A DNA stretch of 49,069 nt, taken from contig DATIHK010000011.1 in the NCBI GenBank assembly GCA_035480775.1, positions 1 to 49,069 of the forward strand. Direction: 5' to 3'. Positions within the stretch are counted from its first letter, which is position 1. Each line of letters starts with the position of its first letter. Origin of the DNA: Candidatus Saccharimonadales bacterium. Lineage in GTDB: Bacteria; Patescibacteriota; WWE3; UBA101185; UBA10185. The notes below the pieces were generated by a model that worked only from the letters and a program-made list of their open reading frames with translations, did not search any database and was not told the DNA's origin. Both the position numbers and the translations under genes were made by a program. Positions 1,996 through 33,988 of the stretch are shown piece by piece.

Positions 1996-2769
1996 TTAGA
2001 CGTGTAGCGGAAGCTGCTTTTCGTCGCCTTCGACAGTCCACCAGTTTGATCGAGCCATAACACCATACAATTGTCCGTCTTCACCTCGAATCCAAACGAC
2101 ACCAACTGGATCATTCTCACCTGGTTCCCAAGTTGCCGGTTCTTGCCCGTAAGCGCGCGCAATAAATCGCAAAAAGTGGCCAGGATCATCGGTGACAAAG
2201 TCCCAGTGACGCGCAAGTTCCAATTTTTCGCCGGGAAAATACTGATTCTCGCGATAGTGCCAGCTACTGGTCTTAAAGTACGTCCGCAAATGGTCTTCAG
2301 CGGGGCGTTCCATTCCACCAAACGTCTGTGAATTGGCAAGTTTGTAGCTGTCCAAATCTGGATAGCGATATCCGACATGATGCAGCTTTAGTCTTTGCTG
2401 CACAGTGTGGTACAAGGTGATCAAAGCAATAAGCTTGTCGTGTTCACCAGCCAGCTTGCTGACGGCGACGATAAAACCGTGTAGGCCGACGCCACCCATA
2501 AGACCTAAGCTGTACTTATTGTCTATTGGCGACATCACTAAAACACCATCTTCACCACCGTGCATCAGCACCATTTCTCCCATCTTGTGGTACGCCAGCA
2601 TCGGCGAAGAGGTCTTGGGATTCTCTGGTACGTTTCCGGCCCAGTTACCGTAAGGCAGCGATTCAATGCTGTTAGGACCAATATTGCAAACTGCTGTGTA
2701 GGTGTACAATTCCATAGCGCTGCAGACGTTCGCAGCAAAAGCATGGGCATTGCTAAGGTCATAATACAT
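1996..2769 (-). CDS. Hypothetical protein (GC-rich cassette 1), 257 aa
   Basis: Longest frame in the GC-rich segment. I trimmed the start to the ATG at 2769, which is preceded by AAGGAG at 7 nt. TTGCTT-17 nt-TATAAT promoter upstream. No domain recognised. Confidence 0.7.
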   Translation of the reverse strand: MYYDLSNAHAFAANVCSAMELYTYTAVCNIGPNSIESLPYGNWAGNVPENPKTSSPMLAYHKMGEMVLMHGGEDGVLVMSPIDNKYSLGLMGGVGLHGFIVAVSKLAGEHDKLIALITLYHTVQQRLKLHHVGYRYPDLDSYKLANSQTFGGMERPAEDHLRTYFKTSSWHYRENQYFPGEKLELARHWDFVTDDPGHFLRFIARAYGQEPATWEPGENDPVGVVWIRGEDGQLYGVMARSNWWTVEGDEKQLPLHV

Positions 2770-2858
2770 TGGAGTAGCTCCTTGGCTATTGGCGAATATT
2801 ACTGAGATTATAGAGTAAAACTCGCCTCCAAGCAACCTATAGGATATTAGGCTGTATT

Positions 2859-3398
2859 TTAGGGATTTATAATTGAGTTGCTAAAAAGGCTCCAAACTTG
2901 CACATCTGTAGGCTCGGTTAAAGACAAGCAGGTCATTATTTCTTGATTTGTCTGACCGTTAGCATCTTTAAACTCTATTGAAGCAGTGGGTGATATCTTA
3001 TAACTAAAAGAAATTGGAGCTGCTTTTGTTCCAGAACATTGTGGGCCATTTGGATAATGAACCATTGAATAAACTTTTTGATTTGGCTGCAATCGATAAA
3101 TACTCACACTTGCTTGTCCTTGCTGACTAACGCTTATATTTTGCACAGTATATGTAGCATCAACAAAGTTATTACCAATAATTTTGCATTCTTTGTTAGA
3201 AATATTTTGAAGCGTCAAATTTCCATAAACATTACCAGCAGCATGCCCAATTTCAATTTGTGCAGAAAGATCGGTTGGACCACAGTATTGATCAGCAATT
3301 AATAATTTAGTGTTTTTAGCATCAAGATAATTTCCAATTGTGTAAGTTACGAAGATTAAAATTAATAAAATTGAAATCAGCCCTAGGGTTCTTTTCAT
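2859..3398 (-). CDS. Secreted/membrane-anchored protein, DUF4232-like
   Basis: N-terminal hydrophobic signal/anchor. Pattern C..DL....GHAAGN..G.L.LQN.S..EC.I.G resembles DUF4232. TATAAT 6 nt upstream of the ATG. Confidence 0.55.
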   Translation of the reverse strand: MKRTLGLISILLILIFVTYTIGNYLDAKNTKLLIADQYCGPTDLSAQIEIGHAAGNVYGNLTLQNISNKECKIIGNNFVDATYTVQNISVSQQGQASVSIYRLQPNQKVYSMVHYPNGPQCSGTKAAPISFSYKISPTASIEFKDANGQTNQEIMTCLSLTEPTDVQVWSLFSNSIINP

Positions 3399-3497
3399 AA
3401 ATATATTATAACTTATTTTTAACTTAAGTTAATTATCTATTTAATAAATTATTTAGTACAATACTGAGAATTGACAATATGATAGAAGGAGGAGCAC

Positions 3498-3671
3498 ATG
3501 AAAACAGCGGTCTGTCCTGAATGTGAAGGTGGCAATGTTCCAGTTGATGGAGTCTTAGCTGGCGAACTCGTGGTCTGTCCAGACTGCGGTGTCGATCTCG
3601 AAGTGACTGCAGTGACTCCAAATGTAGTGCTCGAACTAGCTCCGCAAGAGGCTGAAGATTGGGGCGAGTGA
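3498..3671 (+). CDS. lysW: LysW-type amino-group carrier protein (alpha-aminoadipate/glutamate carrier), 57 aa
   Basis: Not in the ORF track (under 60 aa). My translation: MKTAVCPECEGGNVPVDGVLAGELVVCPDCGVDLEVTAVTPNVVLELAPQEAEDWGE. It has a CPxC...CPDC zinc ribbon and the acidic C-terminal EDWGE tail typical of LysW/ArgW. GAAGGAGG SD upstream. 52% G+C by hand count. Confidence 0.8.
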   Translation: MKTAVCPECEGGNVPVDGVLAGELVVCPDCGVDLEVTAVTPNVVLELAPQEAEDWGE

Positions 3672-3682
3672 GAGAAACAAAA

Positions 3683-3742
3683 AGCGGGTAGGAACCAAGA
3701 GACCACATAGGTTTCTGTAAGGTTCCTACCCGCTCGCTTTTT
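3683..3742. terminator. Bidirectional stem-loop terminator (lysW-like / DUF2795 gene)
   Basis: AGCGGGTAGGAACC (3683-3696) pairs with GGTTCCTACCCGCT (3721-3734). A-run on the left, T-run on the right. It sits between convergent genes. Confidence 0.7.
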
Positions 3743-3746
3743 CAAT

Positions 3747-3971
3747 CTATTCAAAACTTATAGTACTTAATTCTTGTGCTACATCTTTAGCAGTGTGAAA
3801 TTTTCTGTCGCTTAGCAAACGCAAAGAATCAAAAGTATAATTATCAGCCCTATTATTTTGTGCCGCACTCATAAGATCCTCTTTATATGCAGGATACTCA
3901 ACTCCTCCAAGATACTGCATAACGGCTGCAGGATTTACTTCTTCTTTATCTCTAACTGTATATGTTGCCAT
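3747..3971 (-). CDS. DUF2795 family protein
   Basis: 74 aa. YLGGVEYPAYKEDLMSAAQNN......L..L.DRKFHTAKDV matches the DUF2795 pattern. AAGGAGG SD. Confidence 0.6.
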   Translation of the reverse strand: MATYTVRDKEEVNPAAVMQYLGGVEYPAYKEDLMSAAQNNRADNYTFDSLRLLSDRKFHTAKDVAQELSTISFE

Positions 3972-4059: not shown

Positions 4060-6285
4060 TTATTTAAGAAATTTTAATCTCAAACTATTACTAACAACGG
4101 ATACTGAACTAAAAGCCATTGCAGCACTGGCTATAATAGGAGAAAGTAAAATTCCAAAAGTTGGGTAGAGTAGTCCTGCAGCAATGGGAATACCAATAAT
4201 ATTGTAGCCGAACGCCCACCAAAGATTTTGTTTAATTATTTTAAAAGTTTGAGATGACAATTGAATTGATTCTACAACTTTATCAAGATTTCCTTTTACC
4301 AAAACTATATCACCGGATTCTATAGCCACATCTGTGCCGGTCCCCATTGCAATACCGATATCGGCTTGTACAAGTGCAGGGGCATCATTTATACCATCTC
4401 CAACCATTGCAACAATTTTGTGGCTAGTTTGGTTATTTTGAAGATCTGAAATTTTCTGAACTTTATCTGCAGGAAGTACTTCTGACAAAATTTCAGTGAT
4501 TCCAAGTTGTTTGGCAATTATTTTTGCGGTAATGTTGTGATCTCCTGTGAGCATAACAGGTATAATATTTAAGTCTTTAATCTTTTGGATCGTTTCATGA
4601 GCACCTTCTTTTATGGAGTCAGCGATACCAACAAGAGCTACATTCTCACCGTTTACACTTACATATGATACTGTCTGAGCGTTTTCACGAAGAATCTGGG
4701 CTTTGTCGCTAAAATCTTGTGGAATGGTTACACCGTTATCTGTCATTAATTTAAGATTTCCAATTAAAATAATTTTGTTTTGATACTTTGCTCTAATTCC
4801 AAATCCCGACATATTTTCAAAGTCTGTAATATCAACGCTTTGATCACCTTCTAAATGTCTTACAACAGCTTCTGCCAACGGATGATGAGACTTTTTCTCT
4901 ATACTATAAATAACTGACGAAATTAATTTAGCATCTTGATCTTTAGAAATTTCGTAACTTTTTACTTCAGGTTGACCTTTGGTTAAAGTTCCGGTTTTAT
5001 CGAATACAATGTAATCTAGCTGATGGGCTATTTCTAGTGCTTTAGCGTCTTTTATTAAAATTCCTTTTCTTGCGGCTTTGCCTGTTCCTACCATGACTGC
5101 AGTTGGTGTAGCTAAACCAAGAGCGCACGGACAGGCAATAATTAACACTGTAGTCGCAACATAAACTGCTAATTGTAAAGATCCGGTAGTAATAAACCAA
5201 AATGCAAATGACATCAGCGCTATTACCACAACAATTGGTACAAAAACAGAAGATATTTTGTCTGCAAGTTTTTGTATTGGAGCTTCGCTTCCTTGAGCTT
5301 CTTCTACCATTTTGATTATTTGCGCCAACATCGTTTGTGAGCCAACTTTTGTGGCTCTAAATTTAAAATATCCGGATTTGTTTATAGTCGCTCCAATTAC
5401 GGGTTGCCCAACTGTTTTTTCAACTGGTAGCGATTCGCCGGTAACCATAGATTCGTCTACAGCAGAGCTTCCTTCGGTAACTATTCCGTCTACAGGAATT
5501 TTCTCACCAGGTTTTACAATTAATATGTCTCCAATAATAACTTGGTCAACGGGAATCTTGATTTCTTTATTGTCGCGTACTACTAACGCATCTTTTGCTC
5601 CTAGTTGTACCAATGCTTTTATAGCGTCATTAGTTTGACCTTTAGCCCGTGCTTCAAGTAACCTACCTAATAATATGAAAAATACAATTATGACCGCAGC
5701 TTCAAAAAACACACTAGATTCACTTTGTACATTTTTAAAGGATGTAGGAAAAAATGTTACAACTGTCGAAAATAACCAAGCTGTGAATGTTCCAAGTGCG
5801 ACTAAAGTATCCATGTTAGCAGCTCTAACTCTAAGTGCAGCAAAGGCACTCGTAAAAAATTGTTTTCCGGCTACAAACAAAACTGGTGTAGCGATTAGAA
5901 ATTGAATAATAAAAAATACTGATCGACCGGCTATTTCTCCAAAGAGCATTTTAGGCATCCAAACCATAAAAATTAAAAATGGAATCGTAGCAATCCCACT
6001 AAAAACAACTAGTCTTTTAGTATGTTCGTATTCTTGTTTTTTCATCATGGCAGCATGATCGTGGTGACCAGAATCATTTACTAATTTATAATCTCCGCCA
6101 CTTGCCACTGTTTCTTGAAGTTTTAGGATTGATACTTGTGATTCGTCGTATTCAACCGTCATTTTTTCAGTCGCATAATTTACTGATACTGAAGATACTC
6201 CTGGTAAGTCGCCAACAAGAGTTTCGATTAAAGATTTGCACGAAGCACAATGCATTCCAACAACCGGTAAAATAGATTTTGTCAT
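4060..6285 (-). CDS. copA: Copper-translocating P1B-type ATPase
   Basis: N-terminal HMA domain (GMHCASCKS), CPC motif ([11 protein letters not shown]), DKTGTLT phosphorylation site, GDGINDAP hinge. Start set to the ATG at 6285, which overlaps the upstream stop as ATGA. Confidence 0.9.
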
Positions 6286-7625
6286 ATAACCCTCACAGTC
6301 ACAGGTGGAACCATACCCATTGTGCAAGTAATTTTAAAATCTCCTTTTTCACGAGGAATAAATGCAATTTCGTTTAACCCTCTATGAAGTTCAAGCACTC
6401 CGCTAAAAAGCCCACGACCTACAGCAGCGTTAGCACATCCGCCTGCATCTACATTTAGTATTTGTAGTTTAGTTAATAACCCTTGTTTCACAGTAAAAAA
6501 TCTAGGAAGATATTGATACCCTGTCGCCGTTAATTCAATTGTTCTTGTCGGAACGGCTTCAACTGCTTTTTGTTTTTGCGGAAGTTTTATATCGCTTAAA
6601 CTTTTAAATCCTAAAGCGTTTAATTGAGAATTAAAACTAAAGACACCAAAAAATATAATTAACAAACCGACAGCATAATTAAATTTTGCAGTAAAAGCAG
6701 GTTTAGAATTTAACTTAATACTCGAAAAACTAATCGCTGCCAACATAGGCAAGGTTCCAAGTGCAAAGAAGAGCATAAATATAGCGCCTTTTATAAAACT
6801 TCCAGATGTAAGTGCAACTCCTTGTGCAATCAAAGTAAATCCACATGGAATAAAAAACGTTAAGCCACCTAACACCAGCGGCATAAATTTTCCGGAAAAG
6901 TTATTTTCGTCTGTTATTTGACCTGAAAATCTTTTAGGAATTCTGATTTGAAATCTCGACGCCCATTTAATACCTAGCATTTGCAAACCTATCAGAACCA
7001 TTACTGCTGCTACTGCTAAAGATAAAAATGCCGAAAAATTGGTAGATATTTTAAGCGTTCCGCCAATTACCCCTAAAATTCCACCTAAAACAGCAAAACT
7101 TATTAACCTTCCAATGTTAAAAAGTAAAAATGGTATAGATCTTACAGCAGCACTGTCACCAATGTATATTTCGTTCCACTTTTTTGTCATCGATAAAAGC
7201 AAACCTCCAACTAGCGCAGCACAACTTGAAATTCCTGCCACTAGACCCAACATAAAAAATGCCCCAATTGAAGAAGAGGCGTTGGCTGAAATATTTGCAC
7301 CTATATTTAATTTTTGAATTAATATAAATGCAATAAATATAAATGAAAATATTCCGAACGCTTGCAAAAATTCTCGTTTTTTATTTATTTGCGTTTTAAT
7401 AACAGTTGGAGAAAATATGTATCCGTGTTCTGAAAATTGCTCATTTAATTTATCTATACTAGGAAGCTCATCTGTATAAGCGACTTCAACACGATTTTGA
7501 GATATAAATGCTTTAACTTTGGTAATTCCTTGGTTCTTTAAAAGTTTTTTTTCTATTAATAATTCACAAGAAGCGCAATGCATTCCTTCGACAAAATATG
7601 TATGTTTTTTAGTGTATTCAGCCAT
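6282..7625 (-). CDS. HMA-domain membrane permease (DsbD_2/TauE-like) with C-terminal cupredoxin-like domain
   Basis: N-terminal [15 protein letters not shown] heavy-metal-associated domain and about 6 TM helices (FFIPCGFT motif). Soluble beta-rich C-terminus. Translationally coupled to copA. Confidence 0.65.
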
Positions 7626-7627
7626 GT

Positions 7628-7891
7628 TTAACTTACTTCATATAGAGTCAAAAGCTCTTTGACAGTTTTGTCTTCTTCTTTATTTTGAATCTGGTCAACT
7701 ACACACGTTTTTAGATGATTTTCCAAAATAAATAAATCCAATTTTCTTAAAGCCGTCTGAACTGCTCGCGACTGATGCAATATATCAACACAATAGTCTC
7801 CGCCATCTATCATGCGTTCTACTGCTTTAGTATGTCCTTGGATTATTTTTATGCGGTGAAGTGCTTTTGTTTTACTGGATTTATCTAGCAT
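7628..7891 (-). CDS. csoR: CsoR/RcnR-family metal-sensing transcriptional repressor
   Basis: 87 aa. RIKIIQGHTKAVERMI....YCVDILHQS.AVQ.AL matches the CsoR (DUF156) fold signature with a Cys/His metal site. Confidence 0.85.
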   Translation of the reverse strand: MLDKSSKTKALHRIKIIQGHTKAVERMIDGGDYCVDILHQSRAVQTALRKLDLFILENHLKTCVVDQIQNKEEDKTVKELLTLYEVS

Positions 7892-7898
7892 GATACAT

Positions 7899-7928
7899 AT
7901 GCTAGTCCCCTACGGGGGGATGTGTCAA
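7899..7928 (-). promoter_or_regulatory. csoR-operon promoter with CsoR operator in the spacer
   Basis: On the minus strand: TTGACA (7923-7928), 18-nt spacer CATCCCCCCGTAGGGGAC, TAGCAT (7899-7904), then 7 nt to the ATG. The spacer holds the GC-rich pseudo-palindrome CCCC-n-GGGG typical of CsoR operators such as B. subtilis copZA. Confidence 0.6.
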
Positions 7929-7935
7929 GAGAATG

Positions 7936-9969
7936 TTATAGAGAAGAATTAGGTTCTTTATAAATAATAAGTTCTTGTCCAGGTTTTACCTTAACTCCGC
8001 TTAACATATTGGTTTCTGCAATTTTTTCCCAAGCACTTCCATCTCCATAAAATTCTTGAGAAATGGACCACAATGTATCTCCATCTTTAACAGTATATTT
8101 AACAACTAAATCAGACTGTGCATCTGCAGTAACTGATGGAATTGCCATCTTGTTTTGTACGTATTTTATAGGCATTCGAAGCGTATCTTTATATAAAATG
8201 GCTTCTTTAACATTTGGCTCTGAAACAAATGCTGTTCCTACCAAAAGCACCAGTAACAAGACTGAAACAATTAAGGGTTTTGTTCTAACTAAAACTGCTT
8301 TAAGCAGGCTTGTTCCATCTTTTTGCATATCTAACATATCTTTTATTAGTGCGGTAAAAAATACTAATGCAAACATTAATGAGCCTTGAAGTGCAAACAA
8401 AAGATATCCTTGAATGCTACTTTTGTGAAACACCAATAAGTAGTACCAACAAGAAATCAATGATAACAATATTAAAAGTAAATAATGGCTATGTTGTAAT
8501 ATACTAAACGGACTATTTTGACCTTTATTTATACCTTTAGTAGTGATCATGTAAGGTTTTTCAATTTTTAAGATTACTTGAATAAAAGCACTCAAAACAG
8601 TCGGCCATCTGGCTATGTGCAAAATTATTCCTCTCCAACTTAAGAAAACATTTTTAGGAGAGTGCCATTTATGACTCCAAATCCAAATTACAAAAGCCAT
8701 AATTGCGATTGGTAATGACATAAGCATAAAACTTATATAACTCACATTAGAAATAGGAGTATTTGTAAATAATGAAATTACAGGCAAAATAAACAAAATT
8801 AATAAGCTAGTTGAGTAAAATGTATACCAACTTTGAACGAATAAAAATTGAATCGCTTGTTTAAATGTATATTTTTTAATACATTTTGGAGTGTAATTTA
8901 TTAGTACTTGAATCATCGAAAATGCCCAAGCGAATTGTTGTGCTAAGTAGGTCTCAAAATTTTCTGGTCCGTCTCCAACAGCAATCACTTTTGGAACATA
9001 GACTCCTTGTTTGCCATTAGCAGCTAAAAATACTGTATCTAAATGATCTTCAGCGCGAGTAGGTTGAAAACCTCCAATATTTTTTATTGCAGCCATATCA
9101 TATGTTGAATGACTTCCTATAATAAACGGTGTTTTACAAAATCCGTAAAATCCCATTTGCATAGGACCTTGTAACACGAGCTCTTGTTCGGCAGATCCTC
9201 GAGCGGTCCAATCTTTTAAATTACCGTAAACACTAGGTGCTTGAACCCAGGCGACATTATCATCTCTAAAATAACCTAAAACTTCATCTAAATAATTTGG
9301 ATTTGGTATGTGATCGATATCTAATTGTGTAAAGTGTGAGTAAACACTTCCAAAAGCATCTATCCAAGCATTAACATTTCCAGCTTTAGTCTTAGCTTTA
9401 AATGGAGGAATATCTTGGTTCCATTTTTTAACCAATTTTTGTCCCCAAGTTGATACGTCTTTACGACTAAAATATTTGACTCCTAAGCTATTAGCCATTT
9501 TTTGAATATCTGGTGAGTGTTCTTTATCTACTACAACCCAACTATCGTGGGGAAATTTTACTTTTTTTAAAGCAACTAATTGTTTGCGGACAATGTCTAA
9601 ACTTTCTGATCCTGGAACTGTAGTTGTAATCATGGCAACATTTTTTACAATTCCGGCTTTTACAGCTGCTTTAGCGGGCATCTTTTGCGGTTTTTTCATA
9701 TTACCTAAGTAAAAAAGGTAAAAAGATGGAAGTATTGTGATATCGTAGAAAAAAGCCAATGAAATAAGGCTAAAAAGCACTAAATTACCTATATGTTCAG
9801 GAGTTAACCACCAGGCCCAAAATAAAACATTTACAAAGGTCCATAATGCTACAAGACATATATATTGAGCTGTCTGTTTCTTATTAAGCACGGTTAATTG
9901 CCTTACTGAAAGGCTTTTAAGGAGTTTTGTCTTAGTTGTGGTTTTGGTTCTTACTTGGCTATAGGCCAT
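7936..9969 (-). CDS. Family 2 glycosyltransferase (processive synthase-like, multi-TM) with C-terminal LysM domain
   Basis: GT2 catalytic core between TM segments (DIDH, RAEDH, QQFAWA resembling Q(R/Q)xRW). C-terminal YTVKDGDTLWSISQEFYGDGSAWEKIAETN is a LysM motif. Start placed at ATG 9969 (TATAAT 6 nt upstream) rather than the TTG at 10020. Confidence 0.7.
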   Translation of the reverse strand: MAYSQVRTKTTTKTKLLKSLSVRQLTVLNKKQTAQYICLVALWTFVNVLFWAWWLTPEHIGNLVLFSLISLAFFYDITILPSFYLFYLGNMKKPQKMPAKAAVKAGIVKNVAMITTTVPGSESLDIVRKQLVALKKVKFPHDSWVVVDKEHSPDIQKMANSLGVKYFSRKDVSTWGQKLVKKWNQDIPPFKAKTKAGNVNAWIDAFGSVYSHFTQLDIDHIPNPNYLDEVLGYFRDDNVAWVQAPSVYGNLKDWTARGSAEQELVLQGPMQMGFYGFCKTPFIIGSHSTYDMAAIKNIGGFQPTRAEDHLDTVFLAANGKQGVYVPKVIAVGDGPENFETYLAQQFAWAFSMIQVLINYTPKCIKKYTFKQAIQFLFVQSWYTFYSTSLLILFILPVISLFTNTPISNVSYISFMLMSLPIAIMAFVIWIWSHKWHSPKNVFLSWRGIILHIARWPTVLSAFIQVILKIEKPYMITTKGINKGQNSPFSILQHSHYLLLILLSLISCWYYLLVFHKSSIQGYLLFALQGSLMFALVFFTALIKDMLDMQKDGTSLLKAVLVRTKPLIVSVLLLVLLVGTAFVSEPNVKEAILYKDTLRMPIKYVQNKMAIPSVTADAQSDLVVKYTVKDGDTLWSISQEFYGDGSAWEKIAETNMLSGVKVKPGQELIIYKEPNSSL

Positions 9970-10061
9970 TGAAGTATTATAGGTTATGCCAAAACCTTTG
10001 TCAAAGCCAGGTTGTTGCAATTCAGTTTGAAGTAATTAGCGTGTGTGGTAAAATACTCTAG

Positions 10062-11534
10062 TTGAATAATTACAAAAATCTATACAAAATCACTAAATAC
10101 TCCTTTAATTTACTATTAATTTCAGTTCTTTTTATCGGAACTTGCTTTGTCGTATTTACCAATCACTCCAACGCAAATGCCAACTCAGTTACAGTTTCCA
10201 ACGGAAAATTATTTGTAAATGGCCAAGAATTTGAAATTAAAGGAATGAACTATAATCCGGTACCAATTGGTCTTACCCAAATAGACCCTACTGCCGCAAC
10301 CAACGATGTTCCTAAGATTGCTCAACTAGGTGCAAACACTATAGGCACTTATAATTTGGGTAAATTCGATTGGTATCAAACAATTAACATTACAGCAGGA
10401 GAAAATTTTTATAACACTTTATACCCTGTAGCAGAAGCAAATAATTTAAAAATAATAGTTGCCTATTTCTCAAATCAAACTATTGATTGGACAAATGCAA
10501 CACAAGTTGCTCGAGCAAGTGCTCAATATCAAGAGTTAGTTATAAAAGCTAAAGATAAACCATCTACACTTATGTACCTTATTGGAAATGAAATTTTTGG
10601 AAGACTTTCGGATAATAATCAGAAAAAAGCTTATGCTACATGGATTGGCCAAATGGTAAACTGGACACACACCAACGATCCCAATCATCCAGTGACTTAT
10701 GCAGACGATGCGTTAAAAAATGGATTGGGTTGGCTAAGTTTATATTCCTCGAACTTGGATATTTATTCTATAAACAATTATGAGTGGGCAACACAGTCAG
10801 ATTTATCAAATATTTTAGCTGCAGATTCGGTTGCTTGGCCAAATAAACCAATTTTATTGCACGAATTTGGAACCGATAGCTTAGATGTACCTAAATGGGC
10901 AGAAGACGAATCAGCTCAAGCAGCAAAAGTTAAAGATTTAGTAACAAATGTCCAAAAAGTTTACGACAGCAATATATTTCCGCTAATTGGGCAAGTGTAT
11001 TTTGAATATACAGATCAATGGGACAAAATCGGGTCACCATCTCTACAAGATAAAGACACTGGCTGGCCCTGGTTATGTACAAACTGCTTTGACGCCAAAG
11101 CCAATGAAGATTTTTGGGGAATATCGCGGGCAGTTGGTGCAGCAAACGCAAATAATAGAGTTCTTAAAAGTGCCTATTACGCATTACAGCAAGTCTGGGC
11201 GCCACAAACTCCAACACCTATTCCGACTCCATTACCTACACCGGTGGGAAATGATACAACACCTCCAACTGTGAGCATTACGAATCCTTTAAACGCAAGT
11301 TTAGTCACAAATAAGGCTAGTGTGAGCATTTCAGCAAACGCAAGTGACAACGTTGGAGTAATAAAAGTAGAATTTTATATTAATAATGTACTTTTATGTG
11401 CCGATACTTCACAACCCTATACTTGCATCTGGAAAGTTCCTAAGCGAGTAGGTGCACAATTTACTATTTTAGTTAAAGCTTATGATACCGCAGGAAATGT
11501 CGGTACAAATACTGTAAGTGTAATTTCTAAATAG
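10062..11534 (+). CDS. Secreted clan GH-A-like glycoside hydrolase with C-terminal Ig-like domain
   Basis: Signal/anchor. NGQEFEIKGMNYNP, IGNEIF (acid/base NE) and LLHEFGTD (nucleophile E) spacing fits a (beta/alpha)8 clan GH-A enzyme. PTP linker, then an Ig-like repeat. TTG start as in the track, so the start is uncertain. Confidence 0.6.
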   Translation: MNNYKNLYKITKYSFNLLLISVLFIGTCFVVFTNHSNANANSVTVSNGKLFVNGQEFEIKGMNYNPVPIGLTQIDPTAATNDVPKIAQLGANTIGTYNLGKFDWYQTINITAGENFYNTLYPVAEANNLKIIVAYFSNQTIDWTNATQVARASAQYQELVIKAKDKPSTLMYLIGNEIFGRLSDNNQKKAYATWIGQMVNWTHTNDPNHPVTYADDALKNGLGWLSLYSSNLDIYSINNYEWATQSDLSNILAADSVAWPNKPILLHEFGTDSLDVPKWAEDESAQAAKVKDLVTNVQKVYDSNIFPLIGQVYFEYTDQWDKIGSPSLQDKDTGWPWLCTNCFDAKANEDFWGISRAVGAANANNRVLKSAYYALQQVWAPQTPTPIPTPLPTPVGNDTTPPTVSITNPLNASLVTNKASVSISANASDNVGVIKVEFYINNVLLCADTSQPYTCIWKVPKRVGAQFTILVKAYDTAGNVGTNTVSVISK

Positions 11535-15711: not shown

Positions 15712-15768
15712 TTAAACAAAAAAACGACCCGGCAACTTGTGAGAATTTCCACAGGTTACAGGGTCGTT
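15712..15768 (-). terminator. Stem-loop terminator closing GC-rich cassette 3 (minus-strand operon)
   Basis: AACGACCC (15723-15730) pairs with GGGTCGTT (15761-15768). A T-run follows on the minus strand. It separates the cassette from the kinase gene. Confidence 0.65.
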
Positions 15769-15794
15769 CGCTGTCTTGCAGTTAAAACATTGCC

Positions 15795-16169
15795 TTAGGT
15801 TCGCGGGTGCGACACTCTGTCAACAATCACACCGTTTTGAACCAGGCACCAAGGACCAGGCAAAAAGCGCGGCCAGACTTCGAAACTTTTAAATCCGAGC
15901 TCGACCGCGACCAATGCCAGAGCTTCACAGAGTTCATTCGCCCGAGCTTCTAGTCCTTCATGTGGGCAAGTGTCGGCATAAATAACAAAATCCGCGGAGT
16001 GTGGATCGGCGTCGACAACGGGGTGCAGAAGATTCACCAGGATGTCGGTGGACTCAAAACCAGAAATTCTGCAAGCCACTAGCTTGAGTCCGACCCGAAG
16101 CTCTTGCATCCTCGCCTGCAGATCTTGCTGAACGCTTAAATCTTTGGGCTCGATATTAATTAGAGGCAT
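15795..16169 (-). CDS. Hypothetical protein (GC-rich cassette 3), 124 aa; possible tautomerase-superfamily fold
   Basis: GC-rich ORF with an AAGGGAG SD. The N-terminal Met-Pro (MPLINIE...) and ~2x60-aa size recall Pro-1 tautomerase-superfamily proteins. This rests on pattern only. Confidence 0.55.
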   Translation of the reverse strand: MPLINIEPKDLSVQQDLQARMQELRVGLKLVACRISGFESTDILVNLLHPVVDADPHSADFVIYADTCPHEGLEARANELCEALALVAVELGFKSFEVWPRFLPGPWCLVQNGVIVDRVSHPRT

Positions 16170-16182
16170 TCTCTACTCCCTT

Positions 16183-16365
16183 CTATTTGGGGTCTAGACC
16201 AACGCGTTCGCGAGCTTTCTCAAACATTTGCACAGTTTCAAGTTTCGGCTTGCTACCGATTAGCCAAGCGGGATCATCCCAGACAAGTGCATCGACGGTC
16301 AACAACATCGCAGCGTATTTCAGATGCCACTGTAGCCATTTAAGAAGCCTTTTGAGCAGGCTCAT
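16183..16365 (-). CDS. Hypothetical small protein (GC-rich cassette 3), 60 aa
   Basis: First gene of a two-gene unit, 13 nt upstream of the 124-aa ORF. AAAGGA SD. The antisense ORF 16187..16369 is judged spurious. Confidence 0.5.
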   Translation of the reverse strand: MSLLKRLLKWLQWHLKYAAMLLTVDALVWDDPAWLIGSKPKLETVQMFEKARERVGLDPK

Positions 16366-16528
16366 GTGAGATCCTTTCGCAAATGGTTTAACTCAAGTTG
16401 AGATGATTATATTACAAAGTCGAATTATAGTAAACTATAGGGTAAGCTAATTGGCATTCTTCATTCATTCATTGTATATTGTGCATAGTTAATCCAACTT
16501 CCCACTTATATAGGTATAGGAGGGTGAA

Positions 16529-20810: not shown

Positions 20811-20853
20811 AAAAAAAGCAGTCGGTTGATGGAATTTTCCAAAAACCGGCTGC
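20811..20853 (-). terminator. Rho-independent terminator of cassette 4 minus-strand gene
   Basis: On the minus strand GCAGCCGGTT...AACCGACTGC (9/10 bp) followed by TTTTTTT. Confidence 0.7.
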
Positions 20854-20896
20854 CGAATCTAGCTGTTTATAACCGTATTTCGATGAGTCTAGCTTC

Positions 20897-21214
20897 CTAC
20901 CGACGCTCTTCGAGCGGTGGAGTGTATAGCACCTGCTGTTGAATTCTTTTGTTATATGGATCGGTGTAAACGAAAACGCACTGCTGATTGCCACGTCGCG
21001 AAATTTTTATACCTATGACATGCTTGTTTCCTTCTGGTCGAACAAGAGTGATTTCACCCTCTTCGACTATCAGCTGACTACTATGCGTATCAAGCCAATC
21101 GCGGGCTGGTTTTGTTGTCACACTCGCAATAATTCTTGAACGTTCGGGTTCCACAAAAAAATCGTCGGACACGAATGCGCCATTTGGCGTGTAGAGCGGA
21201 TTTAAATCTCCCAT
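20897..21214 (-). CDS. Hypothetical protein (GC-rich cassette 4), 105 aa
   Basis: GC-rich ORF with a GGGAG SD 6 nt upstream of the ATG. No family recognised. Confidence 0.6.
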   Translation of the reverse strand: MGDLNPLYTPNGAFVSDDFFVEPERSRIIASVTTKPARDWLDTHSSQLIVEEGEITLVRPEGNKHVIGIKISRRGNQQCVFVYTDPYNKRIQQQVLYTPPLEERR

Positions 21215-21326
21215 TTTAGGTCTCCCGTAGGTGTTGTCGGTTAAATTCTAATCTACTTTAGTATATTTAGTCAGAAAACTCAAATTTTTGATACAATGCT
21301 TGCAGCCATGGGTGGAAGGAGACTCA

Positions 21327-23890: not shown

Positions 23891-23981
23891 GTTTCATATG
23901 ATACTACAAAACTTTGCGTTTGGGATTTGCTATAATCCAACCATAGAAGGTCTTTGAAAACTAAACTAAAAAGGAGCCACA

Positions 23982-24821
23982 ATGGCAACTGGATCAGTTC
24001 CTGCCGGTAGACATCATCTTCCGCCGCATGTAGATACATCTGCGCTGGTTGCTGTTGTCTTGAGTCTACTTGGAGTCTTTGTTATATCGTTGGGTGCTAC
24101 TTGGATCTTCACACGAAATTCAGGCGCTTCCTTGACGAATGTAGAGCCGACTCTTGCAAATATCGCGATTGTTAAGCTGTCGGATACACCAAGTCCAAGT
24201 TCGTCACCAAGCAGTACCAGCACCTCGACAAGTACAAGAACTCCCACCAAGACGGCAACAGCAAGCGCTACACCATCGGCTACACTTACGTCTTCGTCAA
24301 CAGCAACAGAAACGTTGACTGCAACACCTACGGATACTGCAACGCCAACTTCGACGGACACGCCAACATCTACCGCGACTAGGCCTAGACCCACTCGAAC
24401 GCCGGCGCCAACGGAAACTGAAACAGAAGTTCCTACCGATGTCTTCACTGACACTCCAGTACCAGTCGTGCAGCCAGTTCATGTTAACGAAATGCCAACA
24501 CTCGATCAGCTAGTAATGTGTATGGCAGGTTTTGACGGTTCTCCATACCAAGTAAGCCCTGGAGACTATCAGAACCAGTATGGACCACTGGACTTTGTCG
24601 ATGGAAGAGTTGTCCACTTTGTCGGTGGCGAAGTTTTAGACACCTCGGCGGCAGCGTCGTTAAATGTCCGATGGGTTCTTACCTCACCGGAACAAAGCAC
24701 TATGAACGCAGTTTCTCCGTATTCGGTGGATCAAGTTTTGGCAATTGCACCACACGGTTCATGGATACTAGGAAGGTCTGGAGCCCCTTGGTTAACCGTC
24801 GGATGCCATGCAGTTCCTTAG
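23982..24821 (+). CDS. Hypothetical membrane-anchored protein with Thr/Ser/Pro-rich linker (GC-rich cassette 5)
   Basis: AAGGAG SD. One N-terminal TM, a ~95-aa T/S/P-rich low-complexity linker, and a ~115-aa C-terminal globular domain of unknown family. Confidence 0.7.
   Translation: MATGSVPAGRHHLPPHVDTSALVAVVLSLLGVFVISLGATWIFTRNSGASLTNVEPTLANIAIVKLSDTPSPSSSPSSTSTSTSTRTPTKTATASATPSATLTSSSTATETLTATPTDTATPTSTDTPTSTATRPRPTRTPAPTETETEVPTDVFTDTPVPVVQPVHVNEMPTLDQLVMCMAGFDGSPYQVSPGDYQNQYGPLDFVDGRVVHFVGGEVLDTSAAASLNVRWVLTSPEQSTMNAVSPYSVDQVLAIAPHGSWILGRSGAPWLTVGCHAVP
24183..24464 (+). repeat. Low-complexity Thr/Ser/Pro-rich coding repeat
   Basis: Encodes DTPSPSSSPSSTSTSTSTRTPTKTATASATPSATLTSSSTATETLTATPTDTATPTSTDTPTSTATRPRPTRTPAPTETETEVPTD... 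Confidence 0.8.
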
Positions 24822-24842
24822 AGTAAGACTAGAGTAAAAAAA

Positions 24843-24870
24843 GAGCAACCATTTGTGCGAGTGGTTGCTC
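24843..24870. terminator. Shared stem-loop terminator between convergent genes
   Basis: GAGCAACCA (24843-24851) pairs with TGGTTGCTC (24862-24870). The A-run on the left gives a T-run for the minus-strand gene. Confidence 0.6.
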
Positions 24871-24876
24871 TAAAAT

Positions 24877-29712: not shown

Positions 29713-29964
29713 ATGGCTAGTTACGTTTTGGCACAGATAGCCCAAAACTCTCACTATGCACTTTATGATGCATTAAAAGCAATTCCACATGTCACTGCTG
29801 TTACAGATATAAATCACCGACGATGGGATCTTCAAATTGCATTGGATGGAAATGACTCAGAAATGTCTGCTGCACGCGACACAATTTTAGGTCGAAGTGG
29901 ACACTTACCTCCAGGAATTGTGATCGTCAGTGGAATCAGAAATGGAAAAATCAAAAAAAAGTAA
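29713..29964 (+). CDS. Hypothetical small protein (GC-rich cassette 6), 83 aa; possible stand-alone RAM/AsnC-C-terminal-like domain
   Basis: TAGGAG SD. YVLAQI......L.AIPHVTAVTDI..RWDLQIAL.G.D resembles the Lrp/AsnC ligand-binding (RAM) domain. This rests on pattern only. Confidence 0.55.
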   Translation: MASYVLAQIAQNSHYALYDALKAIPHVTAVTDINHRRWDLQIALDGNDSEMSAARDTILGRSGHLPPGIVIVSGIRNGKIKKK

Positions 29965-29980
29965 TGAGTTGCACGGCTCC

Positions 29981-30016
29981 AGCCGGGATTCCCTCTGGGA
30001 TTCTCGGCTTTTTTTA
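29981..30016 (+). terminator. Rho-independent terminator
   Basis: AGCCGGGATTCCC-TCT-GGGATTCTCGGCT followed by TTTTTTT. Confidence 0.75.
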
Positions 30017-30029
30017 AAAATAACTTACA

Positions 30030-30115
30030 TGGTGGGCGAGACAGGAGTTGAACCTGCACGAGTTTTACCTCACAACGACCTCAACGTTGCGCGTATACCA
30101 TTCCGCCACTCGCCC
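30030..30115 (-). tRNA. tRNA-Leu (anticodon GAG)
   Basis: 86 nt with a long variable arm. Acceptor GGGCGAG/CTCGCCC. Anticodon stem CAACG/CGTTG, loop TTGAGGT. TATAAT at 30136-30141. Confidence 0.9.
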
Positions 30116-30151
30116 TTGTACCTCAAAACATTCGCATTATATCAGTTAATC

Positions 30152-30238
30152 TGGTGCCAGAGGAGGGATTTGAACCCTCATCCCCGTGAAGGGACAGCCT
30201 TCTGAAGACTGCGTGTCTACCAATTTCACCACTCTGGC
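30152..30238 (-). tRNA. tRNA-Leu (anticodon CAG)
   Basis: 87 nt with a long variable arm. Acceptor GCCAGAG/CTCTGGC. Anticodon loop TTCAGAA. Encoded CCA. Confidence 0.9.
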
Positions 30239-30249
30239 GAACGAAGTGA

Positions 30250-30292
30250 GCCAGTGGAAGGTTCTGAGCGAAGCTCAGGTTCTTACTCTGGC
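30250..30292 (-). other. 5' leader hairpin of pre-tRNA-Leu(CAG) containing a copy of the tRNA 5' end
   Basis: On the minus strand GCCAGAGTAAG..CTGAGC-TTC-GCTCAG..CTTCCACTGGC forms an imperfect hairpin. GCCAGAGT (the first 8 nt of the tRNA) is repeated at its 5' edge: ACTCTGGC at 30231-30238 and 30285-30292. TGcTATAAT at 30314-30322. Confidence 0.45.
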
Positions 30293-30340
30293 AATCTATG
30301 TTAACTTGTTGGTATTATAGCAATTTGCTTGATAGATAGG

Positions 30341-31514: not shown

Positions 31515-31793
31515 GTTTGTGAGAGAACGACAAGATAGCCGATATTTGGGGAAAAGTTGTTCTCTCAATAACTTCCCCAAATACCGGCTAATTTTGTGGC
31601 TTTAATGCCATTTTAGCTGTGTACCTTGAAAATCTATTGTTCTACTACTAAAGAGGTCTCAGGCCACCCGGGCTTAATACTGGGCAGGAATTAAGCCTGG
31701 ATTGCCTGCAGATCTCTAGCATTACCAGAGGACTGTTTAGGTGTAGTAAGGGGCAGATTTGTTAACTAGCGGCCATTTGGCCATACAAGGAGA
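31515..31793 (+). promoter_or_regulatory. Long structured 5' leader (candidate cis-regulatory RNA) of the 490-aa cassette gene
   Basis: Interleaved helices 31520-31528/31559-31567 (9 bp) and 31536-31553/31573-31590 (18 bp, 1 mismatch). A compound hairpin at 31652-31717 includes a perfect GGCTTAAT/ATTAAGCC helix. GGCC-ATTT-GGCC lies next to the SD. Confidence 0.45.
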
Positions 31794-31799
31794 ATGGAA

Positions 31800-33272
31800 A
31801 TGAATAGGACGAAAGCACTGTTGTTAGTGGTTATCGCTTTGTTGTTTGGCATCCTGGTTTATAGCATGAAAACGAACCAGGTGCTGATTCAAAACAGCAA
31901 CGCGGAGATGACCCAGCAAGCTGAGCTGATCGCGACGAACGTGCAGCTCTCCACCAAGGTGGCGCAGTACGAAGGACAAGATCCCACGTTTGTGCCGGCC
32001 ACTTTCACCGAAGTTGTTTCCACTCCGCAACCCATAATCACCCGAACGATCCTCGTCACTGAAAAGCCGACGCTCTACAGCAGCTACATTTACAGCTTCA
32101 CGAGTTCGCCGGCGGAGTATGGTTCCTTCTTCATCATGTGGAAATTGCAAATAGACCCCCAGGGTCTTCCACAAGATGCGGCTTGGGGCCAGATGCACGA
32201 AGCCTTCAAGCTCGTGAAAAATAGCTGCCCCTACAGCGGCTATGAGACCAACAACTTCGGACTGTCGTATATGGCTATCAATCGTGACAGCTACAGCACC
32301 ATTCCCATGACGGCTGGTTGCTGGAGCATTCTCGAGGCTGTCACCGGCAATACGCTTCAGCAAAGCGACCCAACTTTCGGCCACGATCGCGAGATCGATT
32401 GCCACTTCGGCGTCGCGTGCCAAATCCTTACTGCGCAAGAAATTATCACGGCGCAGAAGTCGCTCGTCGCCGATAATACCAACCTGTTGGTTGACCCCAA
32501 TGGGCAGGCATATTCGACGATCCGCGAGTACAACAGAAACGAACCCAACTTTTACAGCTGGACCGGCATCGGCGAACGCTTTTTGTTCCCGAGCACGGTC
32601 AAGTTTGAGGAGTCTGGGTCGGCACCACTCATGGGCATCACCAACTGGGATAGCAAACAACTTTGCTACCGGTCGGCGGGTCATGTCGGTTTCGGAGAAA
32701 TTCCACAATTCGTTCCCGGTGGCGAAACTCGCTGCCTCGATCCAAAAGTGGACTTCAAGAATCTCACTGCCGACGACCGCCCATTCTGGAATCTGGTGAG
32801 TCAGGGCTATGCTGACAATGGTCGGCTAGTTTTTACCTGGATCTGGATACCGGAACTGAAAGATGGCAAGCTCGTGATTCACGTCCTCGACATCGACGTC
32901 ACGCGCCTCATTCCAGCGGCCATGCCAACAAACATTGGCACGAAGTTCGATGTTCCATATACCGCTTACCCAGCGAAAGCCTACTCATGGGGTAATGGTG
33001 ATCTCGTCAAGCTGGTGGCCGTCACCTGGAGCTATCAAAACTCCACGGCTACTGACACTCAGTGGCGCGGCCTGATCCATCAGTTCGAAAGCATTACCCT
33101 CGAACTGGATGACAAGACCCAGGTCACACTCACCTCAGGCTTCAATGCCAAGCTTCCAAACGGCGTCGAAGAATTCAGCTACGTGCCTGTGAACTTTATA
33201 GGCCGTAGCGCCGTGGTGGATCTGAGTGAGTTTGAAGCTGATGAGAGGGTAATTTTCGATTTCAGGATGTAG
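31800..33272 (+). CDS. Hypothetical membrane-anchored protein (GC-rich cassette 7), 490 aa
   Basis: AAGGAG sits 7 nt upstream of the ATG at 31800; the track start at 31794 is too close to the SD. One N-terminal TM, then a large Cys-containing domain with no recognisable family. Confidence 0.7.
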   Translation: MNRTKALLLVVIALLFGILVYSMKTNQVLIQNSNAEMTQQAELIATNVQLSTKVAQYEGQDPTFVPATFTEVVSTPQPIITRTILVTEKPTLYSSYIYSFTSSPAEYGSFFIMWKLQIDPQGLPQDAAWGQMHEAFKLVKNSCPYSGYETNNFGLSYMAINRDSYSTIPMTAGCWSILEAVTGNTLQQSDPTFGHDREIDCHFGVACQILTAQEIITAQKSLVADNTNLLVDPNGQAYSTIREYNRNEPNFYSWTGIGERFLFPSTVKFEESGSAPLMGITNWDSKQLCYRSAGHVGFGEIPQFVPGGETRCLDPKVDFKNLTADDRPFWNLVSQGYADNGRLVFTWIWIPELKDGKLVIHVLDIDVTRLIPAAMPTNIGTKFDVPYTAYPAKAYSWGNGDLVKLVAVTWSYQNSTATDTQWRGLIHQFESITLELDDKTQVTLTSGFNAKLPNGVEEFSYVPVNFIGRSAVVDLSEFEADERVIFDFRM

Positions 33273-33309
33273 AACAATAGATATAACCCCCGTATAACGG
33301 GAAACTTCA

Positions 33310-33376
33310 CAGGGCAGCTCGCGACGACATAAAGACCACCCGGTCCTCTCGTTGCCAGCTGCCCTGTTTCATTTTT
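33310..33376 (+). terminator. Stem-loop terminator closing cassette 7
   Basis: CAGGGCAGCT (33310-33319) pairs with AGCTGCCCTG (33357-33366), with an inner GCGACGA/TCGTTGC helix, followed by TTTCATTTTT. Confidence 0.7.
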
Positions 33377-33410
33377 AAAATGTTTTGGTAGAAATATAAG
33401 ACTTAATTTT

Positions 33411-33487
33411 ATGGTGCCCCCAGAGGGACTTGAACCCCCGGCCTCTCCGTCCGAAGCGGAGCGCTCTAATCCGCTGAGCTATGGAGG
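33411..33487 (-). tRNA. tRNA-Arg (anticodon TCG)
   Basis: Reverse complement GCCTCCATAGCTCAGCGGATTAGAGCGCTCCGCTTCGGACGGAGAGGCCGGGGGTTCAAGTCCCTCTGGGGGCACCA. Loop CTTCGGA. TATAAT at 33509-33514. Confidence 0.9.
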
Positions 33488-33547
33488 CACGCACGCAGTT
33501 AACGCCATTATTATACTATAAATCCTCCTCCATGATATTATTTACAG

Positions 33548-33988
33548 GTGAAACTTAATCCTCGATACAAATATGTAGCAATTATAGGTTATTTAGTATT
33601 TCTAGTCGCTGGAATTTTATATGTCCACTCTGTTATTTCCTCTGGTAAAGTGCAAGTTTCGACACAATCTACTCCAAAGAAAGTACCTAAAGTTAGATTT
33701 ATTGACGTTTCACTGCAAATCGAAAATGGTCCAACTTATAGAATTAAATTAACTAATTTTGATACTGTTTTAGATTTGCTTGATGAAGCAAGACAACACA
33801 ATGGATTTAGATATGAGCTTGTAGAATATACGGATGGAACACAAATTGATTCGATTAACGGAATCAGTTCTACAGCAGCTCGTAAATGGAGAGTTTTTGT
33901 CGGTGAAAAAGATGTTACTAGTAATATGGGAGATGTAGTCCTAGAAAACGATAAAACTTATACTATTCGTAGCGTAGCGCAACAATAG
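33548..33988 (+). CDS. Membrane-anchored protein, possibly DUF4430-like
   Basis: 146 aa with an N-terminal TM. The C-terminal pattern (..INGISS....KWRVFVGEKDV....GDVVLENDKTY) resembles DUF4430. GTG start with TATTAT 6 nt upstream. Confidence 0.45.
   Translation: MKLNPRYKYVAIIGYLVFLVAGILYVHSVISSGKVQVSTQSTPKKVPKVRFIDVSLQIENGPTYRIKLTNFDTVLDLLDEARQHNGFRYELVEYTDGTQIDSINGISSTAARKWRVFVGEKDVTSNMGDVVLENDKTYTIRSVAQQ

Follow-up and report, generated by a model that had tools for sequence, protein, structure and literature searches.

The window, that is, the whole 49,069-nucleotide stretch of DNA analyzed here, comes from a WWE3-like Patescibacteria genome and carries a solitary gene of the LysW type between two genes of DUF families. 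The features of this locus are as follows.

2859 to 3398, minus strand: gene for a DUF4232 protein (Pfam PF14016, 35.1 bits; GC3 0.23), a native flanking gene divergent from lysW
3486 to 3492, plus strand: Shine-Dalgarno sequence AAGGAGG, 5 nt before the lysW ATG, read from the sequence
3498 to 3671, plus strand: lysW-type coding sequence, 57 amino acids and stop codon, identified from the ORF translation, family profiles and fold
3672 to 3678, plus strand: GAGAAAC, a possible vestige of a lysX start, from by-eye comparison with donor junctions
3683 to 3743, no strand assigned: putative bidirectional intrinsic terminator with a 14-bp GC-rich stem, an inner 7-bp stem, an A-run on the 5' side and a T-run on the 3' side
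3747 to 3971, minus strand: gene for a DUF2795 protein (Pfam PF11387, 51.1 bits; GC3 0.20), a flanking gene convergent with lysW that has the terminator in common with it

A first-pass annotation of this DNA described a zinc-ribbon ORF with an EAEDWGE tail, its own Shine-Dalgarno sequence, a terminator with a 14-bp stem, and DUF4232-like and DUF2795 neighbors. Translation of the 57 codons at 3498-3671, which gives the protein MKTAVCPECEGGNVPVDGVLAGELVVCPDCGVDLEVTAVTPNVVLELAPQEAEDWGE, the AAGGAGG motif located 5 nt upstream of the ATG and the Pfam matches of both neighbors bear out this description. The gene is monocistronic, with one divergent and one convergent neighbor. The arms of the 14-bp stem span positions 3683-3696 and 3721-3734, and the hairpin has a folding energy of -39.3 kcal/mol (z = -6.8). 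With an A-run 5' and a T-run 3' of the hairpin, this predicted terminator can serve the convergent DUF2795 gene as well as lysW. An alternative interpretation of the GC-rich stretch as a non-coding RNA was rejected because no Rfam family matches it and the hairpin sequence is unique in the genome. No sigma-70-like promoter upstream of lysW on the plus strand passed a consensus scan; TACAAT at 3457-3462, picked by eye only, is a candidate -10 element. The lysW gene is a monocistronic solo unit of approximately 250 bp that consists of a donor-type Shine-Dalgarno sequence, the ORF and the shared terminator, and the DUF4232 and DUF2795 genes are not part of this cassette.

The wider neighborhood includes a metal-homeostasis row beside the cassette (4060-7891, minus strand), with genes for a CopA-type P-type ATPase containing an HMA domain, an HMA-DsbD_2 fusion and a CsoR-like repressor (Trns_repr_metal). 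Across the window (36% GC), the GC fraction reaches 0.45 or more in about ten islands, each no shorter than 200 bp; the lysW cassette is one of these, and the others include 15726-16400, 20851-21250, 23976-24875, 29951-30325 and 31626-33575.

The zinc ribbon of the predicted protein is of the CxxC...CxxC form, with cysteines at positions 6, 9, 27 and 30 that occupy invariant columns in an alignment of 39 homologs. The C-terminus is APQEAEDWGE, with the same EDWGE end as in 80 of 80 Anaerolineae relatives and in Thermus LysW. The profile search that had been proposed as a check of the family assignment was positive in one part only: the ORF passes the Pfam model Zn_ribbon_LysW (PF21344) with 46.1 bits against a cut-off of 27 (E 3.8e-12), but misses the NCBIfam equivalog TIGR01206 (lysW) by 0.1 bit (53.1 against 53.2) and is below the cut-off of NF041070 (53.7 against 75). 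A phmmer search of PDB sequences retrieved Thermus LysW (3wwl, E 2e-11) in an alignment that matches the EDWGE ends of the two proteins, and the six best PDB fold matches of an AF2 model (built with 39 homologs, pLDDT 86.6) are all LysW chains (TMq 0.72-0.79). Of the 33 columns with a conservation of 90% or more in the 119 closest homologs, 30 are retained, the exceptions being a one-residue insertion at G11 and the conservative replacements L16V and I24L. Judging from the Pfam profile, the modeled fold and the similarity to Thermus LysW, the initial assignment was correct and the ORF encodes a genuine LysW-family amino-group carrier protein.

Characterized LysW and ArgW proteins are those of Thermus thermophilus (3wwl, 3wwn, 5eio), Sulfolobus tokodaii (3vpb) and Thermococcus kodakarensis (5k2m). 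The window protein resembles the characterized LysW in length, in the four-cysteine zinc ribbon and in the EDWGE end, with about 53% identity to Thermus LysW. It differs from them in genomic setting: the characterized proteins are encoded and work together with LysX/ArgX, LysZ, LysY, LysJ and LysK, none of which was found in the genome from which the window derives. The amino-group carrier proteins of Streptomyces (clusters of the DADH/vazabitide type) are LysW homologs recruited outside lysine and arginine synthesis, and these clusters retain a LysX-like ligase along with LysZ, LysY and LysJ homologs in one cluster.

The closest relatives of the window protein are found in Chloroflexota. The nearest non-self sequence among 5.8 billion proteins is 80% identical, and the named close matches all belong to Anaerolineales or Chloroflexota. 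In a search of GTDB contigs (one genome per species), the best 80 loci come from Anaerolineae or Chloroflexota apart from one MAG labeled Planctomycetota, and lysX starts no more than 150 bp past the lysW stop in 75 of the 78 of these loci that have enough downstream DNA. Full lysW-X-Y-Z-J-K clusters were seen in the two loci inspected in detail, L006 (GCA_020845955.1, contig JADLEU010000205) and L008. Other LysW proteins of Patescibacteria are only 39-55% identical to the window protein, whereas those encoded in Anaerolineae clusters, such as L006, show 71-80% amino acid identity, with the same APQEAEDWGE tail and the same AAGGAGG motif. Since this motif precedes lysW in both L006 and L008, the Shine-Dalgarno sequence probably arrived with the gene. 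The foreign origin that the first-pass annotation had raised as a possibility is thus upheld, in that the nearest relatives are Anaerolineae genes within lysW-X-Y-Z-J-K clusters, and these comparisons of homologs and gene order show a horizontal origin of lysW from Anaerolineae (Chloroflexota).

The two settings differ downstream of the gene and in codon composition. In the Anaerolineae clusters, the lysX start coincides with or closely follows the end of lysW, and GC3 ranges from 0.55 to 0.85, whereas the window gene has a terminator after its stop codon and a GC3 of 0.39. The GAGAAAC heptamer directly after the window lysW stop matches the GTGAAAC lysX start of an Anaerolineae-type junction (L050) at 6 of 7 bases in a fixed position. 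This resemblance is suggestive only of a vestige of the donor lysX start and could be due to chance; it weakly suggests that the foreign stretch extends from the Shine-Dalgarno sequence to a few bases into lysX, or approximately 200 bp. The cassette shows no insertion scars in the form of flanking direct repeats or a tRNA. A phage vector was considered and rejected given that none of the 50,697 phage records contains a LysW relative. Comparison with sister sites found homologs of the DUF2795 gene in only 3 of 60 family genomes, none of them syntenic, and a metagenome scan with the adjacent CopA yielded nothing closer than 57% identity, with LysW, DUF2795 or DUF4232 nearby in 0 of 80 CopA loci.

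The nucleotide composition of the gene bears on the time of transfer. The ORF has a GC content of 52.6% compared to 36.8% for the genome, so that the earlier description of it as GC-rich relative to its flanks is accurate as a measurement but misleading as a clue to origin: the excess sits in the first codon positions (GC1 0.77), where it results from the abundance of Glu, Asp, Gly, Ala, Val and Pro, whose codons begin with G or C. GC content was therefore rejected as evidence of recent transfer. The GC3 of the window lysW is 0.386, compared with 0.28 ± 0.08 on average across the genome. Inspection of the closest homologs, which the first-pass annotation had advised, showed that these are Anaerolineae genes and that GC3 never falls below 0.55 (median 0.755) among the 28 relatives sharing 65% identity or more. 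More distant Anaerolineae lysW (54-60% identity) have a GC3 of 0.39-0.46.

Synonymous sites are saturated between the window lysW and its nearest relatives (pS 0.73-0.85), and dN (0.13-0.19) is no higher than it is among Anaerolineae lysW themselves. At sites that have G or C in all four nearest relatives, the window gene has A or T at 13 of the 29 third positions, at none of the 33 first and at 2 of the 23 second positions (third against first and second combined, 2 of 56; Fisher p = 6e-6). In a neutral AT-biased simulation that started from the closest relative and ran to the observed GC3, the ORF stayed intact in 0.2% of 2000 runs, and an identity of at least 78% was reached in none. The near-host composition of third positions, together with the retention of first and second positions, the cysteines and the tail, implies that purifying selection acted for a long time once the gene had left its GC-rich source. 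The simplest reading of these patterns is amelioration under purifying selection during a long stay in AT-rich genomes, with the protein and its tail held constant. This selection could date from a time when lysW still belonged to a cluster or from a stay in an intermediate genome, and an unsampled donor of moderate GC content is possible considering the GC3 of 0.39-0.46 in the distant Anaerolineae lysW. The suggestion that the gene is a recently transferred fragment is disfavored by the contrast between its GC3 and that of the close relatives and by the preservation of first and second codon positions.

Searches for the enzymes that act together with LysW gave negative results throughout the assembly. 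The Pfam models for the ligase (RimK, PF08443, and LysX_preATP_grasp, PF22626), for LysY (Semialdhyde_dh, PF01118) and for LysJ (Aminotran_3, PF00202) have no match in this genome. With queries from an Anaerolineales cluster, the best tblastn match for LysX (E 0.011) is to a Ddl-like gene, and LysY, LysZ, LysJ and LysK yielded nothing at E < 0.2; homoisocitrate dehydrogenase, homocitrate synthase, ArgH and PurA have no match at E up to 1. As a positive control, a genome of the same family (G009) gave strong matches for LysX, LysY, LysZ and LysJ in the same searches, which indicates that the method detects these genes; LysK, missing from the 12 kb examined, was the only partner gene that did not turn up there. 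No RimK-family gene was detected in the 12 genomes that represent this family in the phylum sample, G009, which is outside this sample, being the known exception. The observation that no lysine or arginine biosynthesis gene occurs near lysW thus holds for the 49-kb window and for the rest of the assembly, and the genome-wide search for LysX/ArgX-type ligases and LysZ, LysY, LysJ and LysK that had been recommended along with it detected none of these and no lysW cluster elsewhere. By these homology searches, no LysX, LysY, LysZ, LysJ or LysK homolog is encoded in the 95.5%-complete assembly, and the orphan status of lysW is supported as far as a MAG allows.

The only ATP-grasp genes identified in this genome are three divergent Ddl-family paralogs, all of which score below the NCBIfam Ddl cut-offs.

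Contig C25, locus L014, 1474 to 2490, minus strand: Ddl-family ATP-grasp paralog
Contig C15, locus L015, 1099 to 2217, plus strand: Ddl-family ATP-grasp paralog
Contig C68, locus L016, 755 to 1426, minus strand: Ddl-family ATP-grasp paralog

Of the 134 genomes of the class, 36 contain the C15 paralog, but three other genomes with LysW-type genes (G230, G458 and G009) do not, so that it does not track LysW; being widespread in the class without such co-occurrence, it was rejected as a specific LysW partner. The C68 gene overlaps a downstream Peptidase_C39-like gene (L016, 130-768), and the two look like an ATP-grasp and C39 peptidase pair.

The assembly that contains the window consists of 915,627 bases in 91 contigs, with 36.8% GC, and about 4.5% of the genome is missing from it. 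An identical LysW protein in the same context is encoded in GCA_964473275.1 and in two Logan assemblies (99.5-99.9% nucleotide identity); the recurrence of the same junctions in three other assemblies shows that the locus is not an assembly artifact. The 174-bp lysW is free of differences across the four assemblies, which is uninformative at a divergence of 0.1-0.5%. Among 134 genomes of the class, this lysW was found in one species only.

Several other features of the vicinity emerged from the comparison of assemblies. A 133-bp tract within the DUF2795 gene (3792-3924) accounts for 20 of the 24 differences from GCA_964473275.1 over 5.3 kb, mostly spaced by multiples of 3 nt, and resembles a segment brought in by recombination from a more divergent relative; it begins 47 bp past the lysW terminator, and the lysW cassette itself contains no differences. 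On the other side, an ORF of 279 amino acids (1996-2835, minus strand; 50% GC, GC3 0.51) has no Pfam match and 28 database homologs with 34-62% identity, the named ones coming only from candidate division WWE3 or Patescibacteria. All three other assemblies break within this ORF: L011 has a gap of 100 N over 2383-2671, and L012 and L013 start at 2672, which suggests a repeat or a strain-variable stretch. Paralogy with another 279-aa ORF (23982-24821) was rejected as the cause of these breaks because the two ORFs are unrelated.

Matches to the LysW domain were detected in 5 of the 134 genomes of the class, namely, the genome of the window (G000), G009, G466, G230 and G458. In G009, an AT-rich (37% GC) lysW-lysX-lysY-lysZ-lysJ row is present (L223, G009:C8, approximately 6381-10340), and a LysW-dependent pathway in a CPR genome of about 1.1 Mb is unusual in itself. 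The LysW of G009 is identical to the window protein in only 25 of 57 positions and thus does not represent the same acquisition. In the genus g46, the genomes G230 (a single contig of 0.9 Mb) and G458 share a solo LysW-like gene at a syntenic position, flanked by a TrmH-like gene and lexA.

L025, 1390 to 1665 (G230), and L057, approximately 1432 to 1662 (G458): solo LysW-like gene of g46, on the same strand as lexA and directly upstream of it

The g46 gene may be co-transcribed with lexA. Like the window lysW, it is a solo gene from the same host class that is locally GC-elevated, has an SD-like AGGA or AGGAG sequence upstream and ends in EDWGE or EDYGE (EEEEDWGE in G230, EEKEDYGE in G458). 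Unlike the window protein, to which it shows about 40% identity, the product has a variable N-terminal extension that is not conserved between the two species, and its locus is upstream of lexA. The LysW cores of G230 and G458 are identical in 34 of 54 positions, with saturated synonymous sites (pS 0.75) and a dN of 0.25, and synonymous sites in the flanking genes are equally saturated. The models searched in G230 and G458, which cover LysX, LysY and LysJ (RimK, LysX_preATP_grasp, Semialdhyde_dh and Aminotran_3), have no match above cut-off in either genome, and a word-based search for homologs of the g46 protein returned only the query itself. The solo state in two species with saturated synonymous sites implies that a solo LysW-like gene can persist for a long time, and the constraint on this gene across speciation makes pathway-independent use of LysW plausible. 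This is no proof of such a use for the window lysW, which was acquired independently of the g46 gene.

Many matches to the LysW Pfam domain in Patescibacteria are zinc ribbons of approximately 55-65 amino acids that end in -EEEK, -VDEGK, -LVEK or -YVQK rather than -EDWGE (loci L024, L026, L028-L036, L041, L044, L047 and L049); these are a separate subfamily. They share the Pfam domain with the window LysW but lack the terminal Glu and the EDWGE end, and are accompanied by enzymes of their own, whereas the window LysW is canonical and solitary. A different arrangement was observed in G303, a larger, GC-richer Patescibacteria genome, where an EDWGE-tailed LysW gene directly follows argH (L023, G303:C6, 55-1665), away from the RimK-type genes of that genome, in an unlinked ArgW-like arrangement.

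We favor, at about an even chance, the explanation that a solo lysW derived from Anaerolineae is kept by selection in this WWE3-like Patescibacteria genome and works with a partner other than LysX. Under this scenario, a lysW of Anaerolineae ancestry became a solo unit in a genome in which no part of the LysW pathway was found, and purifying selection in AT-rich genomes would have kept it, which would mean that the gene is expressed and useful. Physically, the protein would still work as a LysW, with the acidic flexible tail that ends in Glu docking into the basic cleft of an enzyme. The partner would be something other than a ligase of the LysX/RimK type from this genome, with the divergent Ddl-family ATP-grasp paralogs and enzymes of a Chloroflexota host as tentative candidates. 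The repurposed role that the first-pass annotation put forward for this carrier protein is plausible. A broader version of the same idea, in which canonical LysW carriers have a second, LysX-independent role and at least two independent lineages of ultra-small WWE3 bacteria that lack amino acid biosynthesis captured and kept a solo LysW, the one in the species of the window with an intact acceptor tail, is tentative and, in our judgment, has a modest chance of being correct.

Selection on LysW can also be accounted for without a new partner. If an ancestor possessed a complete lysW-X-Y-Z-J-K cluster from Anaerolineae that underwent amelioration under selection, and reductive evolution then removed everything 3' of the lysW stop, the remaining gene would be a functionless relic, too short or too young for its decay to be visible. 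The AT-rich lysW-X-Y-Z-J row of G009 demonstrates that WWE3 genomes of the same family can host the pathway, and the 7 nt that follow the lysW stop resemble a donor lysX start. However, there is no lysX remnant beyond these 7 nt and a clean bidirectional terminator directly follows the stop, the LysW of G009 stems from a different acquisition, and the persistence of the solo gene in g46 indicates that a solitary state can be stable in the long term, and we regard this course of events as unlikely. Still less probable is that a lysW-only fragment arrived recently as a neutral passenger from an unsampled Chloroflexota donor of moderate GC content or from a mobile pool that supplies the GC-elevated cassettes of this genome, with all the selection having occurred in the donor. 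The restriction of this lysW to one species among the 134 class genomes and the roughly ten GC-elevated islands of the window are compatible with such an event. The genome carries several GC-elevated cassettes, so that cassettes may be taken up whatever their function, a point that also weighs against the favored explanation. The low GC3 values known from Anaerolineae, however, come from genes of a subclade farther away, at 54-60% identity, with high GC3 in 28 of 28 closer relatives; the nearest of 5.8 billion proteins is only 80% identical; and neither a phage record with a relative nor direct repeats or a tRNA flanking the cassette were found.

Two further possibilities concern the assembly itself. 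The partner genes might be encoded in the approximately 4.5% of the genome that is missing from the 91 contigs, in which case lysW would not be an orphan. This is highly improbable given that the LysX, LysY, LysZ, LysJ and LysK genes and those for making alpha-aminoadipate or arginine all went undetected in 915 kb, that the place next to lysW, which lysX occupies in 75 of 78 donor-clade loci, is taken by a terminator, and that RimK-family genes went undetected in all 12 sampled genomes of the same family, G009 standing outside this sample as the exception. The local rise in GC over the flanks might also point to a chimeric assembly or to Chloroflexota contamination, but this explanation is effectively refuted by the presence of the same junctions in three other assemblies from different data, by the host-like rather than Chloroflexota-like GC3 of lysW and by the small size of the foreign stretch, only about 200 bp within a 49-kb contig.

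To our knowledge, and as far as we could find, LysW has been described only as the shuttle of a five-enzyme pathway. If the gene is kept by selection in a genome that lacks both these enzymes and amino acid synthesis in general, LysW would be able to do something else or to use a partner never before connected with it. A general LysX-independent role, if real, would imply an undiscovered non-RimK enzyme that uses the LysW tail, or use of the carrier with or against the LysW-dependent enzymes of a Chloroflexota host. Should the gene instead be a relic, it would record an earlier lysine or arginine pathway that this lineage had borrowed, which would be informative with regard to reductive evolution in CPR bacteria. 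Anaerolineae often share habitats with CPR bacteria, and the Anaerolineae-derived gene with its ribosome-binding site provides a lead on host association; if LysW acts with or against enzymes of the host, the donor clade would also point to the host of this symbiont.
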